Source of the DNA: a virus
Length of the DNA stretch: 64,000 nt
Virus record (IMG/VR): IMGVR_UViG_3300045988_168162
Location: 1-64,000 of that record
Strand: one strand, 5' to 3'
Part shown: positions 5,987 to 53,296 of the stretch, piece by piece
Layout: each line of letters starts with the position of its first letter
Position numbering within the stretch: the first letter of the stretch is position 1
Translations under genes and position numbers: made by a program
Notes under the pieces: model-generated
Seen by the model: only the letters and a program-made list of their open reading frames with translations
What the model was told of the DNA's origin: nothing
The model's database searches: none

Positions 5987-6163
5987 TCAGATGAGGGACT
6001 GGAAGTTCTCCAGCTGGTAGGTCATGATGGACGACAAGAACAGCAGGTAGCTGAGTATGCCGATCTCTACATATTTATTGTCAGTCCGGAAGCTGATCAG
6101 CATGGCGATGGGAATGGAGAGCAGCTCTGCGAAAAATAGGATGATGTTGAAAATCTGGATCAC
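5987..6163 (-). CDS. small membrane protein (58 aa)
   Basis: Hydrophobic ORF. GTG start forms a GTGA overlap with the dnaE stop. Confidence 0.4.
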   Translation of the reverse strand: MIQIFNIILFFAELLSIPIAMLISFRTDNKYVEIGILSYLLFLSSIMTYQLENFQSLI

Positions 6164-9100
6164 CTCACATGGGAATATCTTGTAAGAAACTCGTTGAAGT
6201 CTGTTGTGGACTGCACCCACTGGTCGCCGTCCTTACTCCATTTACCCTCAGTATGAGTGTCGAGCACCTTGATGATCTCGCCTGGTTCGACAGGGTTATC
6301 GTCGAGGGTGCATGGACGGATCTTATAAGTGATGGTTTCGCCGGAGCAAAGCTGATAGAGGGTGATGTTCTTGTTTTTGTACTTGCCCTCGATAGCGGTG
6401 ACGTAGTGGTAGGTGGTGGCGAGGCGGGGGTTGGTGTATTGAAGGTAGCCGAGGTAGTCACTTTGCGCTTTTAGAATCTGCGTGACGCGAAGCTTTTCGT
6501 CCGGCATGTCGTTCCAGATTTCTTGCAATGCCGCATCGCAATCGAAATTCTTATAAGTTTTAAGCTTGTCTGTTGTCTCTGAATATTTCTTTATGTATTC
6601 GATATAGGGAGAATCAGTATCCTTTGGAAACTGTGTACGCCCATACAGCTGATTGCAGGCATCAATAAATTTAAGAATTTTGTTGCCGCCAGCAAATGGC
6701 GAGAAGTAATCCAGCAGAACAAGCGTTTCGATTTTGGCGGAATTCAGACTGCGAGTGTGCGACATTTCTTTCCAAAGAGAATAAAAATCGTTATACTTGC
6801 CGGTTTGATATAGCTTGTACAGATCATTGGCGCAGCCCTGACTTAGCCCCTTGATGGACAGCAGGGAAGGATCAATAGCGTGATTGGCTTTATCGGCAGT
6901 GAATTTACGATTATCATGCCCCCATTGGATTGGTCCCTCATGGATACCAAAGCCGCGAAGCATTTCGGATTTTAGGGAAGAGACTTTATCCTTTTTGCCC
7001 TTGTTAGAGAAATGCTGGAGACAGACCTCATAAAATTCATAGGGATAAGTAGCCTTTTGCCAGGCATTGTAAAGGGAATCATAGGCCATACAGCAGCTAT
7101 GGCTGGCATTGAAGGAATAGGCCGTGGCATCACTTATGATTTGCCAAATTTCACCAGAGACTTCTTCGGGAGTTTTACCGGACGTGCATTGACCTTTAAG
7201 CTTTTCGCACATTCCTGTGACAAACTGACTTTTTAGCGGGCGTACTTTTTCTGGATGTTTTTTCGCAATGTCTTTTATAATTCCATAGCAGCGGTCCATC
7301 GGGAATCCTGCAAAATTAAGAACAGACATAAGTTGTTCTTGGGTTAAAATGAAACTATAGGGGAACTCTTCCGTTTGCAAAATGGTATCCAAAGCCGGTA
7401 TTCCGTAAGAAAATGGCTCACGACTTTCAAATTTTGAGTACATAGACTTGAAGCCAGGACGAATAGCCGCGATAAAATTAGCAAGCTCGGAAACATTTTT
7501 TGGTTTATAGCGCAAGAGTTTTTGCGTTGTGGAAGCTCTCTCACATTGATTGACGCCGCAAGTTAAACCTTTAGAATAAATATTCCAGACGTCTGGATTA
7601 TCCTTGACCGCATCTGAAAGCTCATCTACCGTCAAAGGTTTCATTCCGATACGTTTAAAAACTGCATCTGTGAGGGCAACAGTATCAACGATCAGCCAGT
7701 CATTTTTAAGGAACTTGTATTTTTCTGCAACAGCACCATCAACAACAGTGGTGATATATTCCTTCTTGGTCGTTTCGCTCTTACATTTAATGAGGCCAAT
7801 TTGCCGCCGAATAGATCCCGCATAGAGCATATAGGCACAGGGGGCTTTGGATTTGGAAACGATCAATCCCCAATAAACTTCGCTTTTTTTGACGAGATCT
7901 TGGTATTCAGGATCAACATAATCATAGATGTTAATTTCATCTTTTTCGTCATCGTCAGCGTATTTCATGGCCAAGTCATATTTATCAATCTGGTCACTGA
8001 TTTTATTTGCAATTTCAAAATCCAGCTTTTTGGCACGGGCATACATTTTAAATGCTGCCTTCTTTTTCATGGTGCCAAAGGCGATCATGGGATAAGCGTG
8101 GTCTGCACCTAGAATTTCACGCTGGGCACGCTCAAATGGTTCCTGAGCATTGATGTTCTGGTCGATATCTGGAAGGCTATTCGTTTGAATAATTCGAGTT
8201 GTAGACAAGAATCGTTCTGGATATAGTTTGATTGGACTTTTAAAACGATCGACCTTACTGAATCCGCAGAGCGTATTGGTAAAATAACTCACGGCAGAAC
8301 CACGGCCAGTGTTGGTAATAATGCCGCCATACTCGATACCGCGCTTAACGATTTCATAGTCCATCAAAGGATAATCAACCATGCCGGTATCTTTGTAAGT
8401 GTAGACTTCCATTTTGACGCCGTCATAATAGCGCTGATAATCTTCCGGCGGAACATGCTGCATATACTCGCGGAATTTTTTGCTGATGAGTTTATTGTAG
8501 ATATGGAATTTTTCGTCTGGTGTTTTGTCCGGGTAGATGCTGGGAAGTTTACGGTTGGTCTCAAAAACCTCGCTTTGGTAATCCTCGAAATCACAGATCA
8601 AATCAGTATTTTTGATTGCCTTATCTACATCATCAGCAGAAATGATACCCTGTTCGGCAAAGCGTTTGCGGACTGTAACTTCATCTGGGTAGTCCATATA
8701 CCAGCCGTCCTCATCATCGTAATGAGTATTGCTGGCGGCAAGCAGCTCGTCACGTTCAATCGCCTGTTCAGGATAGATGTAATGGCTATCGAGTCCGACA
8801 ATCATCTGGATACCATATTTTTTAGACAGCTCCAGGATTCTGGCATTTAGCCGCTTTTGCTTATCCGTATTGTGTGCTTGGATTTCCAGCATGAAATTAT
8901 CTTTGAAATAGTTATGTAATTTGAGCACCAAATCATCGACATATTCAGGCTCGTATTGCCAGAACGCAACACAGGCGGAAGTTACAAAGACATCATTCTG
9001 CGGTAGAGAAAACAAAAGTTCTTCATCCAGACGGGGGCGGTAGTAGTAGCCATCCTCATTGGCCGTAGACAGAACGTCGTTGATACTCTCGCGGCCATTT

Positions 9101-9372
9101 TCGTTTTTGGCAAGTAATACGATATGGCAGTTCTGCTTATCTTTTTCGTGCCGGTCTTTGACCCAGTAGGCTTCGGTGCCAAAGATGAATTTAAGACCGT
9201 ACTTGATAGCGGTTTCGCGGCATTCGTGATATTTGCCTTGCCAGCCATGTTCAAGAGAACAGAGGATCTTCTGATTAAGTTCTACAGCGCGTTTGGCATA
9301 TTGCTCGTATGTTGCAGGTGAATCAGGAGTATAAATATTGGAACAGCAGGTGTGCTTATGGTAATTCTGAAT
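6160..9372 (-). CDS. dnaE: DNA polymerase III alpha subunit (1070 aa), apparent ATT start
   Basis: N-terminal PHP motif YHKHTCCSNIYTPDS and Pol III alpha size and architecture. In-frame ATT at 9372 follows GGAGGTGATACT. The upstream gene stop TGA sits inside that SD. Confidence 0.88.
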   Translation of the reverse strand: MQNYHKHTCCSNIYTPDSPATYEQYAKRAVELNQKILCSLEHGWQGKYHECRETAIKYGLKFIFGTEAYWVKDRHEKDKQNCHIVLLAKNENGRESINDVLSTANEDGYYYRPRLDEELLFSLPQNDVFVTSACVAFWQYEPEYVDDLVLKLHNYFKDNFMLEIQAHNTDKQKRLNARILELSKKYGIQMIVGLDSHYIYPEQAIERDELLAASNTHYDDEDGWYMDYPDEVTVRKRFAEQGIISADDVDKAIKNTDLICDFEDYQSEVFETNRKLPSIYPDKTPDEKFHIYNKLISKKFREYMQHVPPEDYQRYYDGVKMEVYTYKDTGMVDYPLMDYEIVKRGIEYGGIITNTGRGSAVSYFTNTLCGFSKVDRFKSPIKLYPERFLSTTRIIQTNSLPDIDQNINAQEPFERAQREILGADHAYPMIAFGTMKKKAAFKMYARAKKLDFEIANKISDQIDKYDLAMKYADDDEKDEINIYDYVDPEYQDLVKKSEVYWGLIVSKSKAPCAYMLYAGSIRRQIGLIKCKSETTKKEYITTVVDGAVAEKYKFLKNDWLIVDTVALTDAVFKRIGMKPLTVDELSDAVKDNPDVWNIYSKGLTCGVNQCERASTTQKLLRYKPKNVSELANFIAAIRPGFKSMYSKFESREPFSYGIPALDTILQTEEFPYSFILTQEQLMSVLNFAGFPMDRCYGIIKDIAKKHPEKVRPLKSQFVTGMCEKLKGQCTSGKTPEEVSGEIWQIISDATAYSFNASHSCCMAYDSLYNAWQKATYPYEFYEVCLQHFSNKGKKDKVSSLKSEMLRGFGIHEGPIQWGHDNRKFTADKANHAIDPSLLSIKGLSQGCANDLYKLYQTGKYNDFYSLWKEMSHTRSLNSAKIETLVLLDYFSPFAGGNKILKFIDACNQLYGRTQFPKDTDSPYIEYIKKYSETTDKLKTYKNFDCDAALQEIWNDMPDEKLRVTQILKAQSDYLGYLQYTNPRLATTYHYVTAIEGKYKNKNITLYQLCSGETITYKIRPCTLDDNPVEPGEIIKVLDTHTEGKWSKDGDQWVQSTTDFNEFLTRYSHVR

Positions 9373-9376
9373 AGTA

Positions 9377-9586
9377 TCACCTCCGTTTTTCGTAATATTT
9401 GGCGGCCTCAGTCCTTGTGCGCTGGACGATTTTATCTGTCTCTTTGACATCGCGGCCGGAAGCACATTTGACGCATTTGATACGCCAGTTGCTTTGACCG
9501 GTATAGTGGCGCTCGAAATGGCCGTAACCGACGGGGACAAATTTACCGCAGCAGTAGCAGTAACCTGGGAATTTATTACGGGCCAA
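9377..9586 (-). CDS. zinc-ribbon protein (69 aa)
   Basis: CYCCGK .. CVKCAS cysteine pairs, basic C-terminus, TTG start. Confidence 0.5.
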   Translation of the reverse strand: MARNKFPGYCYCCGKFVPVGYGHFERHYTGQSNWRIKCVKCASGRDVKETDKIVQRTRTEAAKYYEKRR

Positions 9587-9734
9587 TGGTAATCACATCC
9601 TTATCGTTTTTCTTGAAGTTCATCGCATCAGTTACTTCCTCTGCAATTTTGTCAAAGAACTGTTTGGCAAATTCATCGACAGTAACATTTCCGGTAAGAA
9701 TATCACATGGATTCAATATTTTATGCTTGTCCAT
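9576..9734 (-). CDS. hypothetical protein (52 aa, below track cutoff)
   Basis: ATG 9734 (MDKHKILNPCD..) is embedded in the last codons of the upstream gene. Fills an otherwise empty gap. Confidence 0.4.
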   Translation of the reverse strand: MDKHKILNPCDILTGNVTVDEFAKQFFDKIAEEVTDAMNFKKNDKDVITIGP

Positions 9735-9963
9735 AGAGTTCCTCGAAACTAACAGTCGGCTCTACTGTAGTTACTGGCATGTTCCGTGCAAGGAAGTAAT
9801 CGACAGCGTTTAGCGGCACGATATAAGGATCTCCGCCATTAAATTTTGGATACAGGTAGATATATTCAGGATCCAGTGTACCAGCAGCCATATAGCCGTA
9901 CTCTCTGCAGAAGCCTTGCAGTTTATCAATCAAGGCGTCCTTTTCAGCTTTTGAAAGTGTCAT
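9721..9963 (-). CDS. small protein with C-terminal PTVSFEELY tag
   Basis: Ends ..VEPTVSFEELYGQA. Start at MTLSKAE (ATG 9963) inside the tag codons of the upstream gene. Confidence 0.5.
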   Translation of the reverse strand: MTLSKAEKDALIDKLQGFCREYGYMAAGTLDPEYIYLYPKFNGGDPYIVPLNAVDYFLARNMPVTTVEPTVSFEELYGQA

Positions 9964-10240
9964 ACAATTCCTCAAAATCGATAGTTGGGGATTGCAAAGT
10001 TTCTGACTGCGCATAGTCGCTTATATCAGGCTGCACGAACCAGGCTGTCTCGCATTTATTACCAGAATTATCTTGAATAAAAACAGGGCCATACAATGGT
10101 AGGTCGTAATAACCACCGTATCGATCACAATACCAGTCCAGATAATGTTTGACTTCAATAAACCGTTTGGTCGTGTTAATAATGATTTTCTTTCTGAATA
10201 TGTTTTTATCCTGTTCTGCGGTACTATTATTCATGTTCAT
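9944..10240 (-). CDS. small protein with C-terminal PTIDFEELY tag
   Basis: Ends ..QSPTIDFEELYDTFKS. The start ATG lies inside the upstream tag codons. Confidence 0.5.
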   Translation of the reverse strand: MNMNNSTAEQDKNIFRKKIIINTTKRFIEVKHYLDWYCDRYGGYYDLPLYGPVFIQDNSGNKCETAWFVQPDISDYAQSETLQSPTIDFEELYDTFKS

Positions 10241-10436
10241 AGAGTTCCTCGAAACTAACGATGGGCTTAGTCGCCGGAATACTGACAGGTCTTACATCGC
10301 CGTCTTTTGTGTAAACTGGAACCCCTGCAAGCGAAAAAATGTACTTATCCGCCACGCTCATGAGACCGCTTTCTGGTGCGGTGATGTAATATCCGTTTGT
10401 ACATGATGTAGTACTTTTATTAAATATATAGGTCAT
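10227..10436 (-). CDS. small protein with C-terminal PIVSFEELY tag
   Basis: Ends ..TKPIVSFEELYEHE. Confidence 0.5.
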   Translation of the reverse strand: MTYIFNKSTTSCTNGYYITAPESGLMSVADKYIFSLAGVPVYTKDGDVRPVSIPATKPIVSFEELYEHE

Positions 10437-10768
10437 TTTGTTTCCCCGTATAAATCTTGGAAACTGACAGTTGGAACTATTGGCTCGATACTCACCGTAG
10501 ACTGGCCAGGCTTTTCATCCATATGCGCTGCAAACATTTCCATCATTGCTGCCAAAGATTTTCCGCATACTCTGCCGCCGTTAATCATTTTGGTATATTT
10601 AAGTTCCGTGTCATCAACTACAGAAATATGACTTCCATTTTTGAAGTAATAATCACGCGGCACAAGGTAGCCAGCATCAGCAAACCATCTATCGTATCCT
10701 GGGTAAGCCTTATCAAGAGCCTTGATAATGCTTTCGTATTTGGTTTCGGCTATATCATTCCATTCCAT
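10433..10768 (-). CDS. small protein with C-terminal PTVSFQDLY tag
   Basis: Ends ..IVPTVSFQDLYGETK. ATGA-type overlaps on both sides. Confidence 0.55.
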   Translation of the reverse strand: MEWNDIAETKYESIIKALDKAYPGYDRWFADAGYLVPRDYYFKNGSHISVVDDTELKYTKMINGGRVCGKSLAAMMEMFAAHMDEKPGQSTVSIEPIVPTVSFQDLYGETK

Positions 10769-11868
10769 TAGAACAGCTCCTCGTCATCGTCCGGCTTGGA
10801 TGTGTTTGCAGCCAGACGGTCGTTATAATCTTGGATGTAAGGGCAAGTTTTGCGGTGGCCGCACAAGTTATTGCAGAAAAAACTCGTGTTTTTGCCGATC
10901 TCACACGGCTCCCACGGATGCTCTTTGTCGTGTGGCAGGCTTTCGTACAGGTCAGCCGTTTTATTGATGTAATCGAGCGCTTCCTGTTTAAGCTCCTCGG
11001 TGTATGGATAATTGCGCACATAGGGCTTGATGGAAAACTGCTCACGAACGGCGGCTGGGAACTGGTCACCAAGAATATTCGTTTTGGAAAACTCCATCAA
11101 GGCCATCTCGATATCTGCTTCGTCCATGCCGGATTCGCGGCAGGCGGACTCGACAGCATCCTTGATCGTGGCATAGATCTTAGAGCGGTTGACGATGCGG
11201 GTGAGCGGGGTTTTGATTTTGCTGCGCTTGGTTGCGTACCAGTTGAAGTTGATGACCACATATTTAAGCATGATCCAGGCGGTGGACTTGACTTTGTAAC
11301 CGGCCTGTTCGAGAGCCATGCCATAGATCGTCAGCTGGCGCCCGTGTTCAAGGAGGTCTTTCTCGGCATAATTCGAGCTGGTTTTGTAATCCAGAACAGA
11401 GACTTCATTATCATTGCCCCATCTTAAAAGGTCAGCATAACCGCGGATCGCAAGTTTATCGTTGACTTGATAAATCAGTAGCTCTTCTGTTGTGAACTTA
11501 CCTTTTGGACGATAATAGGTTTTACAGAAATGACAAATATCTTCGATGTAACGCCGTCTGATTTCATCCGTGCCGCGAAAATCTTTGGGAAACTCAAGCC
11601 CAAGAGAATCCATCTCTGCAATACCTTTTTCAAAGCGCGGAAGCAATTCTACTTCTGTAATTTTGTCGTTCTCCAACAGTTCAAGGCTGTCATGGCAAAC
11701 AGTTCCTGCCCAGGAATAACAATTGTCGGCACCACGGTCATGGAGTATGTAAGTGCGCCAAGCGGAATATAAACAAGAATTGATGGTTGACATTTTGGAA
11801 TAACTGAGGAGTTCGACACCAGCATCTTTGAGCGCTTGGATTCTTTCGTCTGCACTACGTTGAGACAC
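10768..11868 (-). CDS. PD-(D/E)XK exonuclease, Cas4/RecB-like with C-terminal Cys cluster
   Basis: VLDYKTS nuclease motif, C-terminal CNNLCGHRKTCPY cysteines plus an N-terminal Cys. Acidic tail ..PDDDEELF. Confidence 0.7.
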   Translation of the reverse strand: MSQRSADERIQALKDAGVELLSYSKMSTINSCLYSAWRTYILHDRGADNCYSWAGTVCHDSLELLENDKITEVELLPRFEKGIAEMDSLGLEFPKDFRGTDEIRRRYIEDICHFCKTYYRPKGKFTTEELLIYQVNDKLAIRGYADLLRWGNDNEVSVLDYKTSSNYAEKDLLEHGRQLTIYGMALEQAGYKVKSTAWIMLKYVVINFNWYATKRSKIKTPLTRIVNRSKIYATIKDAVESACRESGMDEADIEMALMEFSKTNILGDQFPAAVREQFSIKPYVRNYPYTEELKQEALDYINKTADLYESLPHDKEHPWEPCEIGKNTSFFCNNLCGHRKTCPYIQDYNDRLAANTSKPDDDEELF

Positions 11869-11880: not shown

Positions 11881-12660
11881 TTAATCTGTGATTTCAACAC
11901 TATAAGAAAGCATAGACAAGTAGCATTCTTTAATAATATTTCCTTTTAAATACTCATCCTCCGCCACTCGTTTTATAATGTCTTCTTTATAAGTTTTGTA
12001 AACTTTAAATGCTTGTTCCGGCGTGTTATATGTACCAAGATAATAATTATTCTTATGTAAAAATGGGTCGCTGCACATAGCCATATAGTTATCGTGGTTT
12101 TTAGTTACACCGATTGGCAAATTTCCTCTATTAAGGTCTTTTTTAACAAATAAAGTATTTACATTATTGGGAACCAAGCTACAATTTTTACCCGAATATA
12201 TTTTGTTGCCTTTTCCACCAATGATATCCTTATCGAGACACCAATGGTGTCCACTTTTCCATTTTTCATAATTGGGTTGAGAAGTAATCCATTTATAAAA
12301 ATCTGTAAAACAGACAAAATCATCCGCTACAAATGCATCACTATAAGTGTTGATGTATTTGGTTTTGTAATAATCTGAACACCTATACAGCATGTCCGCC
12401 CATACTTGATACTCCTTTTTGTGAGCATCTTTTGTATAGATACCACCAGGAATCCCTACGCCATAAACATTTGGACGCATTAGATTTTTTACTAAGCCCT
12501 TTTTTAAAGCGCCCAAAGTACATTCACGTATTGATGGATAATTGCCAAGAAACTCGACTTTGGTTTTTGTACGAGTCCCGCCAATTACCTTTGCAACTTC
12601 CCCATTTTTCATTGTGAATGTCTTACCAATATATTCTTCAAAAGGCTTTCTTTCAGCCAT
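11881..12660 (-). CDS. homing-endonuclease-like protein with AP2-type DNA-binding domain
   Basis: YQVWADMLYRC .. LDKDIIGGKGNKIYSGKNCSLVP .. LPIGVTKNHDNYMAMC .. LGTYNTPEQAFKVY. Related in layout to ORF 30438-31019. Lower GC than its neighbours by eye. Confidence 0.55.
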   Translation of the reverse strand: MAERKPFEEYIGKTFTMKNGEVAKVIGGTRTKTKVEFLGNYPSIRECTLGALKKGLVKNLMRPNVYGVGIPGGIYTKDAHKKEYQVWADMLYRCSDYYKTKYINTYSDAFVADDFVCFTDFYKWITSQPNYEKWKSGHHWCLDKDIIGGKGNKIYSGKNCSLVPNNVNTLFVKKDLNRGNLPIGVTKNHDNYMAMCSDPFLHKNNYYLGTYNTPEQAFKVYKTYKEDIIKRVAEDEYLKGNIIKECYLSMLSYSVEITD

Positions 12661-13678
12661 CTAACCACCTCACTTTCGTTTTCATTATTTCAATATAGGC
12701 TTCACGGCCGAGGTCTGCCGGGTTTGCCTTGCTGCCCTTGGGGATGATCTCGCCATCAGCGTCCCATACATAGCCGACCTTGTTTTTAAGGATCTGGTTA
12801 TTCTGGATGAGCTTTTTGGCTTCCTCGCGGACGGCTTCTTCCTCAAGACCTTCGTCCAGGGCAAGAATGACCCGCTTTGGCTGCATGGAATTGATCATGG
12901 CCGCCTGGGCTTTGGAGACATGGCAGCCGCACAGACCAAGTGCGAGGCCGCAGCCTATGGAGTGCATCTGCATGGGAGCCTTTTCACTCTCATACAAGAA
13001 CACGCTTCGGCGCTCGACAATGTGCTGGTAGTTATACTGCAAGCCGAAGAGTGTCTTACTGCGGGAACATGCAACGATAGGAAGCCAACGATCCTCGTGC
13101 GGGCAGTCAGGGTCATTACTGCGCCCCATAATGCCGCAGAGTTCGCCGTTAAAGTTTCGTTCCGGCACGGTAATACGATTGGATGTATCATCATAGCCGA
13201 CCTGGAACAGCTCCTGAGTCTTATAATCAATACCGCTGCGGAAAAACTGGGTGTTCAGCTTGCCGAGATAAGGTTCTAAGGCTTCCTCCGGGATAGAAGG
13301 AACGTCAAAATCGTTCTCATCATCCGGCATCAGAGCCAGATAAAAACCGTGAAACGGATATCTTGTTTTGATAGAGAGAGCACCTTCGTCCAGCCCTAAG
13401 ACCGTGGCAGCGAGCTTGAGGCTATCTGGGAAAGTGCAGTTTAACCGTTTCATGATCAGGGTAAAAATGTCGCCCCGGTCATTGGTAGAGAAGCAGTAGA
13501 AGCGCAGGGTCTCCACATCCAAGACCATAGAGGTAGGATTTTGGCCCTCGGAACGGGAGAAACGGAACTGGCGCTTGGTAGGATTGTAGGATATGGGAAA
13601 GTATTCAAGCGTTTCGAGAATGGTAAAGACCTTATCCTCGTCGCCTGCGATTTCCTGATGGAGAAGTGCCGCGTTCAT
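12653..13678 (-). CDS. DNA primase (Toprim, DnaG-like)
   Basis: Toprim core VFLYESEKAPMQMHS .. ILALDEGLEEEA. Adjacent to the helicase. Confidence 0.7.
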   Translation of the reverse strand: MNAALLHQEIAGDEDKVFTILETLEYFPISYNPTKRQFRFSRSEGQNPTSMVLDVETLRFYCFSTNDRGDIFTLIMKRLNCTFPDSLKLAATVLGLDEGALSIKTRYPFHGFYLALMPDDENDFDVPSIPEEALEPYLGKLNTQFFRSGIDYKTQELFQVGYDDTSNRITVPERNFNGELCGIMGRSNDPDCPHEDRWLPIVACSRSKTLFGLQYNYQHIVERRSVFLYESEKAPMQMHSIGCGLALGLCGCHVSKAQAAMINSMQPKRVILALDEGLEEEAVREEAKKLIQNNQILKNKVGYVWDADGEIIPKGSKANPADLGREAYIEIMKTKVRWLDG

Positions 13679-15188: not shown

Positions 15189-15737
15189 TTATTCATCATC
15201 GTCATCTTGGAAGAAAGACAGATCGCGGCTGGGTTTGGCGGCGTAGCCGACATCGGCAAAATTTGTGGTATCTTCGGCATTAAATTGCCTTTCTTGCCGC
15301 TGGATTCCCGCCTCGGCACTTTCGCGGCGCTTTTTGGCTTTATAGACATCGTTGATATGGTTTTTGACGACAGCCATAATGTAAGAAGCCCGATGATATT
15401 CACTGGAAAAAGATTTGGTGCGCATGGCATTCTCCAACTGTGGTTTACACTGCTCCAGCGTTTCGAGGATGGTTTCATTGCCATAAAACGAAAGCTGTTT
15501 GATGGAGCGTGTAATGCTGGTGGGGAATACCATTGACGGATCGAACGCCAGAATGTCGTGAATAATATCCATAATGCTTTTGTAAACCTCGGCATCATGG
15601 GTGCGCTGTTTATAGAGCGCCTCGGACTTATAGTAATGACCGTCGGGAGCTTTGAAGAAGGTAAGGCTTGTACCGCGCTCGCCAGTGACGAAGCACTTGA
15701 CGGGGCGGCCTTTTGGCGCAGGAGTTTGTTTTGCCAT
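15189..15737 (-). CDS. hypothetical protein (replication module; acidic C-terminus)
   Basis: Start at MAKQT. Ends ..LSFFQDDDDE. No clear motif. Confidence 0.45.
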   Translation of the reverse strand: MAKQTPAPKGRPVKCFVTGERGTSLTFFKAPDGHYYKSEALYKQRTHDAEVYKSIMDIIHDILAFDPSMVFPTSITRSIKQLSFYGNETILETLEQCKPQLENAMRTKSFSSEYHRASYIMAVVKNHINDVYKAKKRRESAEAGIQRQERQFNAEDTTNFADVGYAAKPSRDLSFFQDDDDE

Positions 15738-15749
15738 GCGCACCACACT

Positions 15750-16856
15750 TTACGCCGTAAACAGAGAAGCGATCTGCTTGAGGGTCTGGATAGGCAGGTC
15801 AGGATCAGAGAACTTGGCATAGCCTGCGCCGTTCAGCATCGTTTTGGCCTGGGACTTGAGATCTGCATCCGCAGTGGAGAAGCCAGCCTGAATGGTGGAG
15901 ATGAATTCGTCACGAGATTCTTCGTCAACCTCTGCCTGGCGTGCAACCTTATCACGGGAACGAGAAACATCGGCCTGCTTGTCCATCTCCGCCTGTTCCT
16001 TTTTGACGGTCTTTTCAAAATCAGCATCCGTCATCTTTTTGGTGGTACTGGAGGATTTGACGCCCTGTTTGAATGCCTCGATGAATTCTTTGGGGTCAAG
16101 ACCAATTGTGTCCGGTAAATCATTAAAGCGAGAGCCAGCATCAATGGTAGACGTACCGCGCAGATGGAACACACGCTTTTCGTCCGCAATCTTGCCGCCG
16201 TTGATATTGCGCTCTAGAGTACCGACAATGACCATCTGAGCATTATCAGCAATAGCGCTGTACGTGCGGTCCTGCATCAAATTCGTCAGCTGTTCGTATT
16301 TTTCGCCAGTCAGAGGATCAGTGCGCTCCTTGAACTTGGTATGAGTAAGAATGAAAACTGCAATACCTGCACGATACAGACGGGTAAGCTGATCCTGAAT
16401 CAGTTTCACGAGACGCTCAGGACCGCGATTATAACCGCCCCATGCTTCCAGCAGAGACTTGCAATTCTTGCCAGTTTCCTTACGACAAATACGCAGTGTT
16501 TCTGCGGCAGCGATATCATACAGAGTATCGAAAGTGTCGAAGCAAACGCCCTTGATGCCGTACTCCTTATTGTTATCGATCAGATCATCAATAATCTGAA
16601 CAAGGCCGCGGTGATCTGTCTCTTCGTCATACTCGGAATCCCATTCAAGAGCTTCTTCGACCTGCAGATTATCAAGTGCATGGAATCCAGATTCAGTGCC
16701 GCAGGAAATCAGAAGTCCCTTGGACGCATCACCCCATGCTTCGACAACGAAATTGCGCCACCATGTTGTTTTTCCGAATTTTCGCGGGGAAAGAATCAGA
16801 TACGGTGCCTGATAACTGCCAAAATCACATTTGACAGTGTTCATCTTAAATGCCAT
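15750..16856 (-). CDS. AAA_24/Sak4-like RecA-fold ATPase
   Basis: Walker A SPRKFGKTT, Walker B-like GVCFDTFD, ILTHTK sensor region. Position typical for a phage recombination ATPase. Confidence 0.65.
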   Translation of the reverse strand: MAFKMNTVKCDFGSYQAPYLILSPRKFGKTTWWRNFVVEAWGDASKGLLISCGTESGFHALDNLQVEEALEWDSEYDEETDHRGLVQIIDDLIDNNKEYGIKGVCFDTFDTLYDIAAAETLRICRKETGKNCKSLLEAWGGYNRGPERLVKLIQDQLTRLYRAGIAVFILTHTKFKERTDPLTGEKYEQLTNLMQDRTYSAIADNAQMVIVGTLERNINGGKIADEKRVFHLRGTSTIDAGSRFNDLPDTIGLDPKEFIEAFKQGVKSSSTTKKMTDADFEKTVKKEQAEMDKQADVSRSRDKVARQAEVDEESRDEFISTIQAGFSTADADLKSQAKTMLNGAGYAKFSDPDLPIQTLKQIASLFTA

Positions 16857-16871
16857 GTAAAAACTCCTTTA

Positions 16872-17978
16872 TTAGAAATATTCCTCTTCATCGGCAGCAG
16901 CTTTTGTTTCGGTGACCTCGAAAGGCAGGTCGTCCTTTGCCTTGGGCTTGGCAGCGTTCTTTTCCATGTCGTCGATAGATTCATCCTTGGTGGGGACATA
17001 AATCTCGTCCTCAAACTCGGAGATCTTATAGCCGGTATCAACAGGGCCATTGGCATAGGTTTCCTTGGCGTAAGGCTCATTGAAGCGCAGCTCGGAAATG
17101 CGGTCGCCAAAGATCTGGCCGCGGGGACGGAAATCATCGAGAGTCTTTTCGCCCAGCTCGATCAGCTTCTTTTGGAGCTTCGTCAACTGAGACTCGTCAA
17201 ATTCGACCTCTTGAGCGCCATTGACAATGCGGACATCCCACATCATGGTTTCAGGCGTCTTGGCCTTGGTGTCGATCAGTTCATTACGGCACTCGAACTG
17301 GCCCTTCTGCTTGGCATCGTCCATGTTAAAAGCATTCGTATTGAACACAACGGTCAGCGGCAGGTACTTGCAGGGATTCTCCTTGTCAATATACTGAGGA
17401 ACATAGCCGTTGACGTAGATCTTGCCGGTCTCTTTAAGATCGGACTTATCCACACAATCCTTCCAGTAGGTGAGCGGGACCATGATAGACAGCTTCTTTT
17501 TATCCTTATCGCGGCGCATCCAGACACCATCAATATTGAAATTACGGCGCAGGACGCCCTTGTTGTCATAGCGGACACTCATATTGCCGGTGACGCGGAT
17601 ATCCTGCTTATAATCGCGCAGTTCATCGGCCAGGTACTGAATAAAATCGTACTCGGTAATGAACTCCTTGATCTCGTCATCCTCGGTACCGACATTGGTG
17701 CGGAACTTGCGGTAACGGGCGACCTTTGCGACCACATCAGGGTCTTTGCGGTCAGCCCAGTCAACATCCATAGCCTGATTGTCAGAATTATAGGTATGGA
17801 TCGTGTCGCGGATAGAACCGTAAAGGCCGCAGAACTCCATATTCGTGCCGACCTTGACGCCGAAATTGAGGCGGACAGCCTTGGCACCGTACTGAGTGGT
17901 GCTTTCGGTCAGGAAATTCTTGCCGACAGACGGAGCGCCGGTAAATGTAAAACGGATGTTCGTATTCTGTTTTGCCAT
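16872..17978 (-). CDS. hypothetical protein with acidic-aromatic C-terminal tail (possible ssDNA-binding protein)
   Basis: Ends ..AAADEEEYF, like SSB / T7 gp2.5-type tails. Strong SD and conserved promoter-like motif upstream. Function inferred only. Confidence 0.4.
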   Translation of the reverse strand: MAKQNTNIRFTFTGAPSVGKNFLTESTTQYGAKAVRLNFGVKVGTNMEFCGLYGSIRDTIHTYNSDNQAMDVDWADRKDPDVVAKVARYRKFRTNVGTEDDEIKEFITEYDFIQYLADELRDYKQDIRVTGNMSVRYDNKGVLRRNFNIDGVWMRRDKDKKKLSIMVPLTYWKDCVDKSDLKETGKIYVNGYVPQYIDKENPCKYLPLTVVFNTNAFNMDDAKQKGQFECRNELIDTKAKTPETMMWDVRIVNGAQEVEFDESQLTKLQKKLIELGEKTLDDFRPRGQIFGDRISELRFNEPYAKETYANGPVDTGYKISEFEDEIYVPTKDESIDDMEKNAAKPKAKDDLPFEVTETKAAADEEEYF

Positions 17979-18000
17979 GTAAAAACTCCTTTAAATTAAA

Positions 18001-18333: not shown

Positions 18334-18567
18334 CTATTTGAGACGCAGCGCATTGCGTACTGCGAAAAGTTCTTCTGGCGTAGTTGTGATGATGCGGATT
18401 TTACGATTGTAGTCGAGGCTCATCAGGCTGAGCAGACTTTTGGCATTGGCCTGACTGCCGTTGGAATCTATGACCTGAACGTCGATACATTCCTGAGCGA
18501 CGGCCTGCAGGCGCTGACACTGGGCGAAGTAATCGATCTTGGTGATAAAATCATACTGGCCGCTCAT
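18334..18567 (-). CDS. HPr/Crh-like domain protein lacking His15
   Basis: VIDSNGSQANAKSLLSLMSL aligns with the HPr Ser46 region (G-K-x-x-x-A-K-S-l). No His at the N-terminal phosphorylation position. Confidence 0.45.
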   Translation of the reverse strand: MSGQYDFITKIDYFAQCQRLQAVAQECIDVQVIDSNGSQANAKSLLSLMSLDYNRKIRIITTTPEELFAVRNALRLK

Positions 18568-20810
18568 ACAGGTTCACCTCTCTCTGCAAAGAACTGCTTG
18601 CGCAGGGTGATGATGTCATAGCCGCGCTGCTGTTTGTAGTTGCGGAAGTTTTCATCCTGGTTATATTTTTCGCGCAGGAAGCCATAGAAAGCATTCTCGA
18701 CTGCGTCCGTAAGCTGGGCGGTATTTTGGATATAGCCCCAGCGGCGGACAGAATCTGCCACACTGCGCATATGCTTCCATTTGGAGTAGTAATCCGTTTT
18801 GAGCTTGGTCATGAAACCTGCTGCATCCTCGAACACGAAGCCCTCGATATATTCATTCCCATATTTATAGCCGGGCATGCTGGCTTTCGTGTAGAAGTCC
18901 AGGAACTCCTGCCAGGTGTTGAGCGTAGCTACATGCTCCTTGACGGCCAGGAAGAAATCTGCATCATTCTCGGCCAGTTCCTTATAGGGCGTTTTACTGA
19001 ATTTGATCTGATTCTTGACCTTGTCCAAAAGAACCAGATGCTGCGAATTGTACTCGATAATATGCGGATCTTTTACCGGGTCAATGACCTCGTACAGATA
19101 GGTGCTGTCAGAGTCACGCAGGGTCTCTTTGACGCGATTCCAGTTATAGGAATCCTTTTCATACCAGGTCTCGGTAAAGATGTGACGGAAATTCTCGGCA
19201 TAGTCGCCGCCGATGGAACCCTTGGAGCAGAAACGCAGGTCATCGTTGTCAGCATCGTAGCTGAGCAGACCCAGATAGCCGTTCTCTTTACGGTAAACTT
19301 CCACCGGGAATTTCAAATTGGCCTTGAGGTAATCCAGGCTCGTTGTAGCGTGGATGCGCCGCAGCTCATCAATGCGGAAGAACTTTTCATAGCCGCGAGC
19401 TACGATCTTATCCTTGGCTGTATCGATAAACAGGCCGCGGGCAAGAGTTGTGCGCTCGTTCCAGTGCGCATGTTTGAACGCCTGACTGGTGAAGTTGAAG
19501 GCGGAGATATTGCCGAATTTGGATTCCCGCACGTCCGGGTCTTTGCGAAGAGCCTCGACCAGATCAGCGACCGGCGTATCGTGTTTGATCTCCAGCGGCT
19601 TTTCCTCTGGCTTGCGGAATACAGTATTGGGCGTTTCGTGCTGGATGGTATTGCCAAAAGCAAGCTCCACACCGCGCAGGCAGCCGCCAAATTCAATATG
19701 TCCCTCCAGCAGACAACACTTGGAATTATCCGGTAGGATGGGGTAATCCTGGATGTTGCGGTGACCGAAGATATGGATGGTATCGGAATCATGCCAGGAA
19801 TCGATAATGCCCGGCAGGTCCTCGTATTTGCCGACACCGTGGACCATCTGATGCGTAGGAATTTTGATAAGGGCCAGCGGGTCTTTTGTATCAAACTTGG
19901 CAATACCTCCATGGCAAACGAAATAGTCCTGACCTTGGAAATTGAAATAGGCACACTGATGAAGGCGCTGATACAGACGGCTGACGGCCTTTTTATCAAT
20001 ACCGGCTGCGTCCAGTTCTTTGCGGGTGAACTGCTCAAAATCGCGGCTGTTGGCGTTTTGTTCATGCGACCATTTATAGAGCCAGCGCTCGTGGTTGCCT
20101 TCCAGCAGGATCACATTGGGTTTGTCCATGATGGAGAGAAGAAACTGAACGACCTGAACATTTTCAAGGCCGCGGTCAATATAATCGCCGCAGAAGATGT
20201 ACATTTTATCGTCCTGGATACCGCCGATATCGGACAGATACTGTTGCAGACATGTATTGCAGCCGTGAATATCGCCGATTACATGAACTGCCTTGTACTG
20301 ATCAAGGTTCGATTTCTTATAGGAAATTTCTGCAATGGCGTTATCCCGTGTAAGGACCTTGATGCCTGCCGGGATCTTTTGCGTGGCAAAACGGGCGTAC
20401 ATTTTATCAATGACGAATTCCGGCACCTGTTTCATGGGCAGACGGCTTGCATTGCGGCGCTTACATTCCGCAATAGGCAGATTCGTCATATCCACCACGT
20501 AGATGCGGTAGCGGTACTGTTTGGCGAGTGCCTTGTAGCGATTCATCTCAGATGTTTTGGAATTGGTGGCGTCAATGACCGTGAAGCAGCCGTTCTGCAT
20601 ACGGGTTTCGAGCATCTTGAACAGCGTTTCCCAGACGAGTTTATCCTGCTTTTGGCTGATCGTCAGGCTGCCATTTGTTGCCTGGATAGGAGAGGAACAC
20701 TGCATGCGGATTTCATCGGCACTGAGGGCGTACTGCTCCAGCCCATAATTTTTTATGTAGGTGGACTTGCCGCAGCCGGGAGCGCCGCGGAAGAGAAGAA
20801 GCGTTCTCAT
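18564..20810 (-). CDS. polynucleotide kinase-phosphatase-ligase (Pnkp-type RNA repair enzyme)
   Basis: N-terminal P-loop kinase GAPGCGKST. Central calcineurin-type phosphoesterase GDIHGC .. GDYIDRG .. GNHE. C-terminal ligase-like domain with YRKENGYLG (K-x-x-G). Confidence 0.8.
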   Translation of the reverse strand: MRTLLLFRGAPGCGKSTYIKNYGLEQYALSADEIRMQCSSPIQATNGSLTISQKQDKLVWETLFKMLETRMQNGCFTVIDATNSKTSEMNRYKALAKQYRYRIYVVDMTNLPIAECKRRNASRLPMKQVPEFVIDKMYARFATQKIPAGIKVLTRDNAIAEISYKKSNLDQYKAVHVIGDIHGCNTCLQQYLSDIGGIQDDKMYIFCGDYIDRGLENVQVVQFLLSIMDKPNVILLEGNHERWLYKWSHEQNANSRDFEQFTRKELDAAGIDKKAVSRLYQRLHQCAYFNFQGQDYFVCHGGIAKFDTKDPLALIKIPTHQMVHGVGKYEDLPGIIDSWHDSDTIHIFGHRNIQDYPILPDNSKCCLLEGHIEFGGCLRGVELAFGNTIQHETPNTVFRKPEEKPLEIKHDTPVADLVEALRKDPDVRESKFGNISAFNFTSQAFKHAHWNERTTLARGLFIDTAKDKIVARGYEKFFRIDELRRIHATTSLDYLKANLKFPVEVYRKENGYLGLLSYDADNDDLRFCSKGSIGGDYAENFRHIFTETWYEKDSYNWNRVKETLRDSDSTYLYEVIDPVKDPHIIEYNSQHLVLLDKVKNQIKFSKTPYKELAENDADFFLAVKEHVATLNTWQEFLDFYTKASMPGYKYGNEYIEGFVFEDAAGFMTKLKTDYYSKWKHMRSVADSVRRWGYIQNTAQLTDAVENAFYGFLREKYNQDENFRNYKQQRGYDIITLRKQFFAERGEPV

Positions 20811-30321: not shown

Positions 30322-30396
30322 TGGTGCTGGATGCAGGCTACGATCCCGCCTTGCCGGAGTACAAAACCGGGGTTCTACCAAATGAACTAATCCAGC
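30322..30396 (-). tRNA. tRNA-Thr (UGU)
   Basis: Cloverleaf read by eye: acceptor GCTGGAT/ATCCAGC, D arm GTTC/GAAC, anticodon loop TTTGTAC, encoded CCA. T-loop is ATCGTAG (non-canonical). Confidence 0.7.
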
Positions 30397-30403
30397 ATAT
30401 AAA

Positions 30404-30423
30404 CCTCAGATTTGCCGCTGAGG
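30404..30423 (-). terminator. intrinsic terminator after ORF 30438-31019
   Basis: CCTCAG-N8-CTGAGG hairpin followed in minus sense by TTTAT. Confidence 0.5.
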
Positions 30424-34319: not shown

Positions 34320-34321
34320 GT

Positions 34322-50485: not shown

Positions 50486-50800
50486 TCAGACCATACTGTA
50501 CAGGTCTGCGAATGTAAGAATGGGGTGGACTGCTTCGGCCTGTACCGTGCCGGTAGCACAATCAATTTCTGCTATATCCACCATCATAAGGTGTCCATCC
50601 CAGGTTCTAATCATATATGTTTCACTATAGAGGGAGTTGGCACAATCCATAATAGTAGCCAGGTGGCCATAACGATGTTTATTAGAGCTGAAAGCCCAGA
50701 CTTCACCAATTTTGATATCGCCATGATTATCTTCGCCAAATTCCTTTGCTAGATCATCCCAGCTGCGGAGCTTGACGGTGTCATCGATGTTGTAGGTCAT
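50486..50800 (-). CDS. SH3-like-domain paralog with C-terminal tag (..HPILTFADLYSMV)
   Basis: N-terminal DDTVKLRSWDDLAKEFG module shared with the five upstream paralogs, plus the shared C-terminal motif. Confidence 0.55.
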   Translation of the reverse strand: MTYNIDDTVKLRSWDDLAKEFGEDNHGDIKIGEVWAFSSNKHRYGHLATIMDCANSLYSETYMIRTWDGHLMMVDIAEIDCATGTVQAEAVHPILTFADLYSMV

Positions 50801-50814: not shown

Positions 50815-51393
50815 TTACGGTGTAACAGAAAAGAGATCGTCGAACGAAATGGTGGGGGCGATGATAGTTGCGGAATCCTTAATGACGCAATCAATGCAGT
50901 ATTTGGTGAACTCAAAATATTGGAATGAAAATTCAGGCTCGGGCATATCCTCGACGATAATTCCTTCAATTCTTTCATCACCCTGCTTATAGGTTTTGAT
51001 TTCTTTGATCGTAAGCGGAACATCGACGAAGAATTTAGAAAAATCACCGCTAAGGCAGGTCGGGTTGTCATTCTCGGGGCCCAGGCCGTTCATATTAAAA
51101 TCGGCCTGCATATCAGCCCAGGAGCGAAGCTGAATCCTATCGCCGGGGTAATAGGCTGGTTCCGGCTCGAGCATTTCATCGCCCCAGCTCCAATAACTTA
51201 AATCAGACAAGAAATCTATATAATAACTACATTCATATACACACGTGATTTTGCCCCAGCGGCCGCAATATTCACGCATAGTATCGGTAAATGTCAAGGG
51301 AACCAGAATGTTTCCATATACGTCCATACCATATTCAGCTTCCATATCGTCCCACTGGCGGATACGGACCCAATCGCCTACTTTATGCTGCAT
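50815..51393 (-). CDS. two-module paralog with C-terminal tag (..APTISFDDLFSVTP)
   Basis: GDWVRIRQWDDMEAEYG and a second GDRIQLRSWADMQADF module. Conserved junction AATGTGAGGTGATTTTGT-ATG. Confidence 0.55.
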   Translation of the reverse strand: MQHKVGDWVRIRQWDDMEAEYGMDVYGNILVPLTFTDTMREYCGRWGKITCVYECSYYIDFLSDLSYWSWGDEMLEPEPAYYPGDRIQLRSWADMQADFNMNGLGPENDNPTCLSGDFSKFFVDVPLTIKEIKTYKQGDERIEGIIVEDMPEPEFSFQYFEFTKYCIDCVIKDSATIIAPTISFDDLFSVTP

Positions 51394-51404: not shown

Positions 51405-51977
51405 TCACATTGCGGCATCAGAGAAAAGATCGGAAAAAGACAGCGTGGGGACGACTTGCGGTAAAGAGGTTGGCACAGCGTGGCAAAACTCATAGCCAGA
51501 AAAAACATACATTTCGAGGTGTGTGTTCTCTTTACAGAATATATGATAGTGATAAATACCTGCACCTCTGTGCGTTATATCCTTGATCGTGGCAAGGACA
51601 GGATTTTGAAACCTGGATTCAAATTCAGGCTTCGTAAAAAATGTCGGATTTATACTTTTGTCGACCCCATTCATATCGAAATCACGATCCAGTGCGTCCA
51701 TACTGCTGACGATGACCTGATCTCCTACCTGGTAGGGCTCATTTGGTTCCAGCATAGCATCTTTCCAGTACCAATTATTATCGACACCTTTAAAGGAGAT
51801 CCGACAAGCATTGCCCCATATGTCTGTTATTTTGCCCCAGCGGCCGCAGAGCTTTTGCATTTTGGGAGCAAAACAAAATTCATCAACCAGAAGGCAATCA
51901 TGATCATCCTTACGGTATTCTTGACAAAGGTCATCCCATTGGCGAACACGCACCCAGTCACCAATTTTATATTTCAC
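51405..51977 (-). CDS. two-module paralog with C-terminal tag (..VVPTLSFSDLFSDAAM)
   Basis: GDWVRVRQWDDLCQEY and GDQVIVSSMDALDRDF modules. GTG start after GAGGTGATTTTGCC. Confidence 0.55.
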   Translation of the reverse strand: MKYKIGDWVRVRQWDDLCQEYRKDDHDCLLVDEFCFAPKMQKLCGRWGKITDIWGNACRISFKGVDNNWYWKDAMLEPNEPYQVGDQVIVSSMDALDRDFDMNGVDKSINPTFFTKPEFESRFQNPVLATIKDITHRGAGIYHYHIFCKENTHLEMYVFSGYEFCHAVPTSLPQVVPTLSFSDLFSDAAM

Positions 51978-51989: not shown

Positions 51990-52322
51990 TCACATTGCAA
52001 AAAGTTCTTCAAAGGAGACTGTAGGTTCGACCTGGTCGGAAACAGGATCTAACATATCATCGTTAAAACCCCATAGCATGTAAGATATATCATCGGGAGA
52101 TAAAACATTGCCGTTATCATCCTGTAAATTGTAGCGATTACCAGACCTGCTTACCGTAAAAACCTGGCCGCAATACTTACGCATAGCTGGGTTAAAATAC
52201 AAACCGTTTACATTTGGCCCTGCCATGCTCGGTATCTTTTCATACTGCATAGCCCACTTAGAAACCAGCTCGTCCCAATCCTTGACGCGGACACAATCGC
52301 CGGGTTTGAATTTGTTTTTCAT
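51990..52322 (-). CDS. single-module paralog with C-terminal tag (..VEPTVSFEELFAM)
   Basis: GDCVRVKDWDELVSKW module, YCGQVFTV core, tag. Confidence 0.55.
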   Translation of the reverse strand: MKNKFKPGDCVRVKDWDELVSKWAMQYEKIPSMAGPNVNGLYFNPAMRKYCGQVFTVSRSGNRYNLQDDNGNVLSPDDISYMLWGFNDDMLDPVSDQVEPTVSFEELFAM

Positions 52323-52669
52323 TGCAGTGCCCCTTTGGCAAAAAGTTTTTCAAAAGACAAGGCGGGCTCGATCGCCATAGTAGGGACATCCTCGGCAGGC
52401 TCCAGCATTTTTTCACTGAATGACCATGTTATTTTGAAATCACGAGAGCGAAGAATATCCCCGGCATCGTCTACAAGATTGAAATAATCTCCGCTGTATT
52501 TGCAAATTGTATAAACATGACCGCAATACGGGATCATGCGGGAGTTAAATAAAAGACCGTCGATACGAAATCCGTCTACGACGGGCACCATATCTTTGGC
52601 ATTCTCGCTGATGGCTGTGAGTGCTTCCAAGCTTTTGACACGGACGCGGTCGCCGATACGATAGGGCAT
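52319..52669 (-). CDS. single-module paralog with C-terminal tag (..IEPALSFEKLFAKGALQ)
   Basis: GDRVRVKSLEALTAIS module, YCGHVYTI core, tag. Confidence 0.55.
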   Translation of the reverse strand: MPYRIGDRVRVKSLEALTAISENAKDMVPVVDGFRIDGLLFNSRMIPYCGHVYTICKYSGDYFNLVDDAGDILRSRDFKITWSFSEKMLEPAEDVPTMAIEPALSFEKLFAKGALQ

Positions 52670-52672: not shown

Positions 52673-53296
52673 TCATTCATCCTTTCCAAAAAGTTCTTCA
52701 AAAGAAACAGTGGGCTGTGTGATGATGGACTGGACAAATTTGCTGCAGTAATAAAGCGTGCTGAGGGGAAATTTCCAGGTAGTATCATTCTCGTCCTGCA
52801 GATTGGCAGCAGTAGTGTCGCCATTGCGATCATAACTTATATGAACGATCTGATACTTTTTAAGGCACATCTTTTTCATGCTTCTGGTGATAAAGATGTT
52901 ATTGACCATACAGTCAGGATCAACCAATGTGGCAGGGGGATTTGCCTGGGCAATGATTTCATTCCAGGGACGCACCCAGACGCTGCTGCCTACTGTTACA
53001 GGAACCTCAGAAGCAGGAACGGCTTCGTACAAAAGAGTATCAGAGAAGATCATCTGACCGCCATCTTTGTAGCGGACAACCATGCACGTCATAGGATCAA
53101 TAAGATCATAACGGATGAGGCATGTCCTTGCATGTATCTGCCCAACACGCATAAGACGGCCGCAGTAAGCAGCTTTTTCCTTATTGAAGCTGATACCGTC
53201 CCTTGTATAAAACGCCTCATCGTTACTACGGCCATTTTCCGCGAGGATCGTTTCAAGGCTGCGGACGATGACCCAATCTCCTGCTTTATAACTCAT
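52673..53296 (-). CDS. two-module paralog with C-terminal tag (..TQPTVSFEELFGKDE)
   Basis: Start at MSYKAGDWVIVRS (ATG 53296). Second module SSVWVRPWNEI. Tag present. Confidence 0.55.
   Translation of the reverse strand: MSYKAGDWVIVRSLETILAENGRSNDEAFYTRDGISFNKEKAAYCGRLMRVGQIHARTCLIRYDLIDPMTCMVVRYKDGGQMIFSDTLLYEAVPASEVPVTVGSSVWVRPWNEIIAQANPPATLVDPDCMVNNIFITRSMKKMCLKKYQIVHISYDRNGDTTAANLQDENDTTWKFPLSTLYYCSKFVQSIITQPTVSFEELFGKDE

Follow-up and report, generated by a model that had tools for sequence, protein, structure and literature searches.

By examining a 64,000-nucleotide stretch of the IMG/VR virus record IMGVR_UViG_3300045988_168162 (positions 1 to 64,000; hereafter the window), we identified a short C-terminal peptide tag shared by ten small proteins from two minus-strand gene clusters of a large siphovirus-type phage from human gut samples. 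We assign a probability of about 0.55 to the interpretation that this tag is a clade-specific docking peptide, carried on a flexible linker, through which all tagged proteins would be directed to one common partner; the proposal draws on sequence comparison and on analogy with known docking tails. That the peptide is functional in some way appears quite likely. An association of the partner with the replisome, which is suggested by analogy, is tentative and rather doubtful. All window-based counts given below cover 64 kb of the ~138-kb genome.

The four proteins of the first cluster (cluster 1, 9721-10768) have the C-termini VEPTVSFEELYGQA, QSPTIDFEELYDTFKS, TKPIVSFEELYEHE and IVPTVSFQDLYGETK, and the six proteins of the second cluster (cluster 2, 50486-53497) end with ...HPILTFADLYSMV, ...APTISFDDLFSVTP, ...VPTLSFSDLFSDAAM, ...EPTVSFEELFAM, ...EPALSFEKLFAKGALQ and ...QPTVSFEELFGKDE. 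Both groups were noticed in an earlier inspection of the DNA (hereafter the sequence-only reading), which quoted the four C-termini at 9721-10768 and placed six further tagged proteins at 50.5-53.3 kb, and all of them were located on the minus strand. The consensus of the ten tags is P-[TIA]-[VIL]-[STD]-F-x-[EDK]-L-[YF], followed in the window by 2-6 residues and the stop codon; with relatives included, every tag has 2-10 residues trailing the final Phe or Tyr. Scanning of the 558 six-frame open reading frame (ORF) segments of the window with the regular expression P.[VIL][STD]F.[EDK]L[YF] resulted in ten matching segments, all on the minus strand and all with the match no more than 20 residues from the stop, compared with a chance expectation of 0.0045 matches (mean of 2000 residue shuffles of the ORFs; maximum 1). 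A ~113-amino acid (aa) protein on the same strand (about 43449-43790) contains the string YTPDFEELY (motif at 43509-43523) 20 residues before its C-terminus; this motif is kept in L014 (YTPDFEELYEIYSEDY), has no P-x-h-S part and occupies a non-terminal position.

Comparison of the tags within the window and across relatives indicates that their conservation is at the protein level. The Pro, Phe and Leu residues are invariant across the ten tags despite codons that differ in 29, 25 and 36 of the 45 pairs, respectively (56-80%). The tag serine is encoded by AGT, TCC, TCG and TCT in the window and additionally by AGC and TCA in relatives, i.e. by all six codons, and the remaining positions vary conservatively (V/I/L, S/T/D, F/Y and mostly E/D). 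There are two acidic residues (EE, DD or ED), one of which is replaced by A, S, K or Q in c2_A, c2_C, c2_E and c1_4. Among 13 orthologues of c2_D (64-95% identity) the string EPTVSFxELF is invariant, and the adjacent upstream linker contains indels of 3-4 residues. Similarly, 20 orthologues of c1_4 (59-91% identity) keep PT[VI]SFxDLY, followed by residues that differ in both sequence and length (GETK, GGQCDVD, MSTQ, RSTQ). The more divergent contig L030 encodes three tandem paralogues ending with PTVSFEDLFKE, PSLSFEDLLTR and PVLSFDDMMCL. The suggestion of a short linear motif grafted onto unrelated bodies is supported by these data as a peptide-level motif: what relatives retain is the amino acids, with varying codons, linkers and trailing residues, and not only the nucleotides of the Shine-Dalgarno (SD) and ATG signals.

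The latter signals are nevertheless real. The sequence-only reading cautioned that the tag codons double as the SD and start codon of the next gene, which is correct in three of the four cluster-1 genes (c1_1, c1_2 and c1_3), where TT[CT] GAG GAA [CT]T[CG] TAT G provides both GAGGA and the following ATG. Taken to its end, this overlap would make the tag a pure DNA/RNA module, in which an SD and start codon are combined with a recombination repeat that joins gene cassettes and the peptide is a passive by-product. Such a module would account for the GAGGA and ATG inside these three tags, for the Tyr of cluster 1, whose TAT-G suits the need for an ATG, for a 41-nt direct repeat common to the tags of c1_1 and c1_3 (85% identity), and for breakpoints of cassette loss and replacement that fall inside the tags. 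It is rather unlikely, given that the cluster-2 tags overlap no SD or start, the SD of the next gene (GGTGAT) coming past the stop codon, and use other codons (Ser TCN not AGT, Phe not Tyr). Only 32 of the 216 codon pairs between the two clusters are identical, the others comprising 97 synonymous and 87 non-synonymous differences. The tag of c1_4, spelled CAA GAT TTA TAC, contains neither an SD nor an ATG, and the invariance of Pro, Phe and Leu at 56-80% codon divergence equally argues for selection on the peptide. The caveat thus holds for cluster 1, where the nucleotide-level role adds to that of the peptide and does not replace it.

The proteins that carry the tag are diverse. The four cluster-1 bodies of the window, described as unrelated by the sequence-only reading, give no BLASTP pair below E=0.6, and none of them is similar to cluster 2. 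By pooling all loci we obtained 131 distinct tagged products from nine body families, namely the SH3-like family of cluster 2 and eight cluster-1 bodies designated A-H. Profile-profile comparison of these families by hhalign gave no significant similarity, the best probabilities being 22% (D vs F), 9% (A vs H) and 7% (C vs G); a hidden paralogy of all bodies was rejected, as far as profiles this shallow allow. Searches of Pfam and PHROGs with the ten tagged proteins and four further bodies from relatives returned nothing beyond weak matches to SH3_15 and phrog_7488. A degenerate DNA pattern for PTVSFEEL[YF] located tagged contigs of the same clade, three in IMG/VR and ~35 in gut metagenomes. 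About a dozen further matches of this pattern, on unrelated contigs, were dismissed as chance, the peptide being internal to large proteins. The tags are absent from the distant relative MT835469 (176 kb, DnaE 41.7% identical), and in the intermediate relatives L027-L029 tagged genes are absent between the exonuclease and DnaE genes. As judged from these genomes, the tag system is narrow and clade-specific.

A relationship overlooked by the sequence-only reading is that six of the ten tagged genes, those of cluster 2, are mutual paralogues (BLASTP, E 1e-30 to 1e-3) forming one SH3-like family with one or two domains per protein. All are on the minus strand: c2_A (50486..50800, 104 aa, SH3-like body) carries the tag PILTFADLY and the tail SMV; c2_B (50815..51393, 192 aa, two SH3-like repeats) PTISFDDLF and SVTP, with the SD of the next gene past its stop; c2_C (51405..51977, 190 aa, two repeats) PTLSFSDLF and SDAAM; c2_D (51990..52322, 110 aa) PTVSFEELF and AM; c2_E (52319..52669, 116 aa) PALSFEKLF and AKGALQ; and c2_F (52673..53296, ~207 aa from MSYKAGDW, two repeats) PTVSFEELF and GKDE. 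The match of c2_C to Pfam SH3_15 is weak (E=1.9e-4, below the family cut-off), and a tblastn search of phages with the same protein gave no match. The AlphaFold2 (AF2) model of c2_D, built on a shallow alignment, has a predicted local distance difference test score (pLDDT) of 72.9 overall and of 55 at residues 101-110; in this low-confidence tail a short four-residue helix (104-107) falls on F-E-E-L. By Foldseek the model matches the Mind bomb MZM-REP domain (Mib repeat; 4xi6, E=5.5e-3, prob 1.0, TM 0.47), the Mib matches, including the Jagged1 peptide complex 4xi7, ranging from E=5.5e-3 to 7.6e-3 with TM 0.46-0.47, and also YorP of the B. subtilis phage SPbeta (2heq). The predicted assignment of the cluster-2 bodies as SH3-like (Mib-repeat/YorP-like) is therefore weak but consistent. 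Literature searches for a described equivalent of the tag or for a function of YorP found nothing relevant.

These domains might themselves be the receptors of the tags, those of cluster 1 as well as each other's, an arrangement that would create a multivalent scaffold or network. The structures closest to the c2_D model are those of the peptide-binding MZM-REP domain and YorP, the tag has an invariant proline, and all six paralogues, with their one or two domains each, are tagged, as would suit such a network. We consider it improbable, as the fold match is weak, the tail of c2_D is not docked on its own domain in the AF2 monomer (tail pLDDT 55), and thousands of relatives of the domain occur without such a tag. 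The domain profile in fact retrieves 2704 representatives, among which the tag is confined to the near clade, and in two-domain paralogues it follows the last domain only. From this distribution we conclude that the tag is an appended module; the view of the tag as integral to the SH3-like fold was rejected, since the N-terminal repeat copies do not have one.

Cluster 1 is organized as an array of cassettes between fixed borders, the PD-(D/E)XK exonuclease upstream (10768..11868, minus strand; ending ...DDDEELF-COOH) and a 69-aa zinc-ribbon-like protein (9377..9586, minus strand) together with the DnaE-type polymerase (6160-9540) downstream. In the window the cassettes, all on the minus strand, succeed each other as follows. 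Cassette A (c1_4; 10433..10768, 111 aa) has the core PTVSFQDLY at 10448-10474 and the tail GETK, and its stop codon and the following gene's ATG overlap in the sequence ATGA. Cassette B (c1_3; 10227..10436, 69 aa; core PIVSFEELY at 10239-10265, tail EHE) includes in its tag codons the GAGGA and ATG of cassette D (c1_2; 9944..10240, 98 aa; core PTIDFEELY at 9962-9988, tail DTFKS), the tag of which in turn harbors the SD and ATG of cassette E (c1_1; 9721..9963; core PTVSFEELY at 9733-9759, tail GQA). The tag of cassette E does the same for the gene after it. Because the tag codons contain the ATG of the next gene, we moved the start of the gene at 9721 from ATG 10014 to ATG 9963 (MTLSKAEKD...), which lies within the upstream gene's tag, is probably the true start and gives a protein of ~80 aa. 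The array is completed by a tagless 52-aa remnant of cassette F (9576..9734), which has suffered an internal deletion; the intact, tagged form (126 aa, ending ...CKPSVSFEELYKKDVTTIGP) is present in the relative L002 and is 85% identical to the remnant over residues 1-48.

The content of the array differs between close relatives. Between the same borders we observed the orders A-B-D-E-F(remnant) in the window, and A-C-D-E-F, A-B-C-D-E, A-C-E, H-G-D-E, H-B-G-D and A-D-E-F(remnant) in relatives. The residues past the tag report which gene was the neighbor, because they are encoded by the out-of-frame start of the next gene, and several of them are chimeric: body E, in relatives, is followed by F's KKDVTTIGP, body C by D's DTFKR and body A by B's EHE. 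A chimera is found in cluster 2 as well, where L072 combines body c2_E with the tail AM of c2_D. These chimeric tails place the breakpoints of cassette loss and replacement inside the tags. The use of the tag DNA as a recombination joint escaped the sequence-only reading; the nucleotide role in cluster 1 is real and consists of translational coupling and in-frame cassette exchange, on top of selection on the peptide.

A conserved core, a variable linker, free trailing residues and many unrelated bodies constitute the anatomy of a docking motif. In the model that we favor, the tag would comprise a short extended stretch (P-x-h-S) and one amphipathic helical turn (F-acidic-acidic-L-F/Y), attached through a variable linker to the C-terminal end of small accessory proteins with unrelated folded bodies, and would dock a changing set of these proteins onto one partner in a T4-like architecture. 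The partner could be a replication-associated hub, of the phage or of its Bacillota host, that recognizes acidic-hydrophobic tails. In cluster 1, 20-40 nt of the tag DNA also carry the SD and ATG of the next gene, resulting in translational coupling, and supply repeated homology for in-frame deletion, insertion and replacement of cassettes, so that the array behaves as plug-and-play tagged effectors. It is conceivable, at a clearly lower level of confidence than docking itself, that the tag is a three-in-one element, in which the peptide addresses the hub, the RNA serves as ribosome-binding site and start, and the DNA provides homology for cassette exchange. If true, this would be a recombinase-free, coding-sequence counterpart of the integron that allows rapid reshuffling of what reaches a single host or replisome target.

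Two other roles for a C-terminal address were considered. Bacteria commonly employ C-terminal degrons, the ssrA tag being one example, and the phage tag could be a shared degron or adaptor signal by which a host or phage protease removes the accessory set together, for example at a switch of the infection programme. An exposed, low-confidence C-terminal tail on many small proteins is in line with this idea, and synchronous removal is plausible. The best-known C-terminal degrons, however, are read at the extreme terminus, whereas here 2-10 variable residues trail the motif; nine conserved positions including an acidic pair exceed the needs of a typical degron, and no protease or adaptor gene is seen beside either cluster, which makes a degron an unlikely explanation. 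Alternatively, the tag could be a targeting peptide for capsid loading and co-injection, for another compartment or for export. Encapsulins employ C-terminal cargo-loading peptides on their cargo proteins; the design is the same, a short C-terminal tag on unrelated cargo, and the tagged proteins are small and accessory. This alternative appears very unlikely, considering that both clusters lie among same-strand replication/early-type genes and not near structural genes, that translational coupling ties cluster 1 to the exonuclease-DnaE operon, that the motif is unlike known cargo-loading peptides, and that no secretion signal or membrane segment is seen. A nascent-chain arrest peptide was rejected on the ground that the distance from motif to stop varies between 2 and 10 residues.

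The placement of a docking partner at the replisome is motivated by the location of cluster 1 in the replication operon, between the exonuclease and DnaE. The replication module is SPbeta-like and includes a single-stranded DNA-binding protein (SSB), a Sak4-like AAA_24 protein, a YorH-like protein, a DnaB-type helicase, a primase, the exonuclease and the DnaE-type polymerase. By DnaE, the nearest named relatives are Geobacillus virus E3 and Tsamsa-like Bacillus phages (~38% identity), a homologue of the SSB is present in a Bacillota genome, and a blastn search for DNA similarity to known phages (3 kb) gave no match. The phage SSB (16872..17978, minus strand, 368 aa) has several OB folds and a disordered acidic tail ...DDLPF...EEEYF; in its AF2 model (pLDDT 85.7) residues 333-368 are disordered, and Foldseek matches it to the Thermus and Deinococcus SSB (E=3.5e-6). 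This protein was the only candidate of clamp size, and these results led us to reject it as a hidden sliding clamp in favor of a multi-OB SSB. The SSB family consensus ends with DxDDLF, the terminal Phe being invariant (...DELF in relatives), and the exonuclease tail is conserved in relatives as DD[DE][DE][DE]LF. The Sak4-like protein ends with ...QIASLFTA, and the YorH-like protein with ...RDLSFFQDDDDE, the equivalent in L027 being RDISDFLFDDEQE, close to SLDFLF of T4. As far as such tails can tell, the module points to a replisome with a tail-mediated interaction network.

Further features were noted in the replication module. In tagless relatives, the C-terminal motifs of the SSB, the Sak4-like and YorH-like proteins and the exonuclease (16872-17978, 15750-16856, 15189-15746 and 10768-11868, minus strand) persist. 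The longest ORF of the stretch (16341-17999, plus strand, 552 aa) is spurious, as judged from gene calls in relatives and family matches; it is antisense to the real SSB and Sak4-like genes. Between the primase and the exonuclease lies a gene for a 259-aa protein (11881-12660, minus strand), which matches PHROG families annotated as HNH endonuclease and is absent in L020-L024. In L001 a 296-aa insertion (12536-13426) is found in front of DnaE, and in L021 (10885-15395) and L022 DnaE is split into 428 and 666 aa, with a 318-aa gene in between in L021. Mobile endonuclease traffic thus appears to occur in this module, as seen by genome comparison.

Several observations weigh against a common docking partner, and in particular against one at the replisome. 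Relatives with an SSB 45-61% identical have the same replication genes and no tagged genes between the exonuclease and DnaE, from which it follows that replication can do without the tag system. The tag has been lost from cassette D of L002, by a stop just before it, and from cassette F of the window, hence individual tags are not essential. Neither a clamp nor a clamp loader was found by Pfam or PHROGs among the scanned proteins of the window, which covers 64 kb of the ~138-kb genome, or in the replication modules of relatives, and the phage DnaE has no QxxLF motif. DnaE itself ends with STTDFNEFLTRYSHVR (TTDFNEFL), for which L028 has DNTTIVTFVTKYTHVR (TTIVTFV), and this end is absent in Geobacillus E3 and MT835469. 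We therefore rejected the DnaE C-terminus as an eleventh tag; as its tag-like end is not conserved, the polymerase does not demonstrably share the tag, in contrast to the situation in T4. The likeness to T4 comes down to a pattern of six residues and, at this length, could be coincidence.

Apart from the tagged genes, the window contains several unusual genes. A cluster of six tRNAs (30322-34396, minus strand; Thr, Leu, Gln, Met, Pro and Gly) encloses a 549-aa ORF (31470-33119, minus strand) with an RRXRR domain (E=4.6e-49) and an HNH domain in an IscB-like architecture, and an Rfam DUF3800-XI RNA match is found at 33765-33814. A set of RNA-repair genes (18564-20810, 38326-39792 and 39758-40798, minus strand) encodes an RNA ligase fused to a kinase and a phosphatase (AAA_33 + Metallophos + RNA_lig_T4_1), an HD-domain enzyme of the CCA-adding/poly(A) polymerase family, and an RlaP-family nucleotidyltransferase; together with the phage tRNAs, this gene content suggests a countermeasure to host tRNA-cleaving defences. 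A reverse transcriptase (56399-57763, minus strand; RVT_1 E=5.9e-16) adjoins a Bro-N protein (53912-55432). Unusual cargo at 23362-24171, 24731-25303 and 25287-26042 (minus strand) includes a member of the PspA/IM30 family (E=1.4e-12) and a protein resembling ABC-transporter permeases (BPD_transp_1, E=1.4e-17), with an adjacent gene at 24731-25303.

Almost all small early genes of large phages are without an assigned function, and a shared docking tag would indicate that about ten of them per genome act at the same place. A single tag peptide could then reveal the common target of ~10 proteins per genome, drawn from at least nine families in the clade. The tag would also be a rare documented case, in bacterial viruses, of a short linear motif spread across unrelated folds, and of a single sequence selected as a peptide, a translation signal and a recombination joint at once, offering a simple mechanism for the modular turnover of accessory genes in gut phages.

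Among known systems, the closest analogy is provided by the clamp-binding tails of phage T4, which are hydrophobic-acidic, follow a linker that is divergent and dispensable, can be freely exchanged for one another and bind the gp45 clamp (PMC2988020). The tails of gp43 (...KASLDFLFG), gp55 (...SPSLDFLYEAND) and gp33 (...NTLDFLL), read from NC_000866, resemble the tag in being hydrophobic-acidic peptides at or near the C-terminus of otherwise unrelated proteins, with 0-4 trailing residues in T4. The T4 pattern [ST]-L-D-F-L-[FYL] and the tag [STD]-F-x-[EDK]-L-[YF] have S-hydrophobic-acidic-x-L-[FY] in common, and gp55 has, like the tag, a proline two residues upstream (SPSLDFLYEAND). A variable linker is also seen here, in the indels and substitutions of orthologues before an invariant core and in the low pLDDT of the tail. 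In contrast to T4, the tag has F-x-E for L-D-F, with the phenylalanine and one acidic residue at other positions, and 2-10 trailing residues; a gp45-type clamp and clamp loader were not found in the window, the DnaE-type polymerase does not share the tag, and the bearers belong to nine families without assigned function rather than being a polymerase or transcription factors. Membership in the T4 clamp-binding family is not supported by these comparisons.

Other peptide addresses share separate features with the tag. The C-terminal tip of SSB (D-D-D-[IL]-P-F-COOH) and the acidic tails of T7 gp2.5 and gp4, which end in F, are disordered, place acidic residues before Leu/Phe and recruit many partners; the phage's own SSB (...EEEYF) and exonuclease (...DDDEELF) have such ends, and their EELF/DDLF string recurs in the tag in a non-terminal position. 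The SSB tip, however, needs the free carboxylate of its last Phe, whereas 2-10 residues follow the F/Y of the tag, which in addition has the conserved P-x-h-S-F half and is borne by proteins other than OB-fold proteins. With the PIP box (QxxhxxFF) and the beta-clamp motif (QL[SD]LF) the tag shares a hydrophobic triad at i, i+3 and i+4 (F-x-x-L-[FY]), and these motifs are likewise often terminal and serve many clients of one hub; no tag has a Q at the required position, QL[SD]LF is not fitted, and the agreement is limited to the h-x-x-h-aromatic spacing. Encapsulin cargo-loading peptides and ssrA degrons likewise act as short C-terminal addresses that send unrelated proteins to one place, but they have other sequences, and here there is no shell or protease context and the tag is not at the extreme terminus.

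The nucleotide side of cluster 1 recalls mobile cassettes. The PeSL regulatory cassettes of T4-type phages consist of a short intergenic repeat with an early promoter and a stem-loop terminator and flank variable genes (PMC2839356, PMC4122927). In these elements, in integron cassettes and in cluster 1, a short conserved repeat around variable genes of unknown function is the site of insertion, deletion and replacement in close relatives. Unlike in PeSLs and integron attC sites, the repeat described here is coding sequence that includes the SD and start, and neighboring genes overlap or directly adjoin, leaving no intergenic space; no integrase is involved, and the exchange preserves both the frame and translational coupling. 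C-terminal docking tails and repeat-mediated cassette shuffling are thus both already known. What is new here is their fusion in one element, the occurrence of one tag over at least nine protein families, and its clade-specific sequence.

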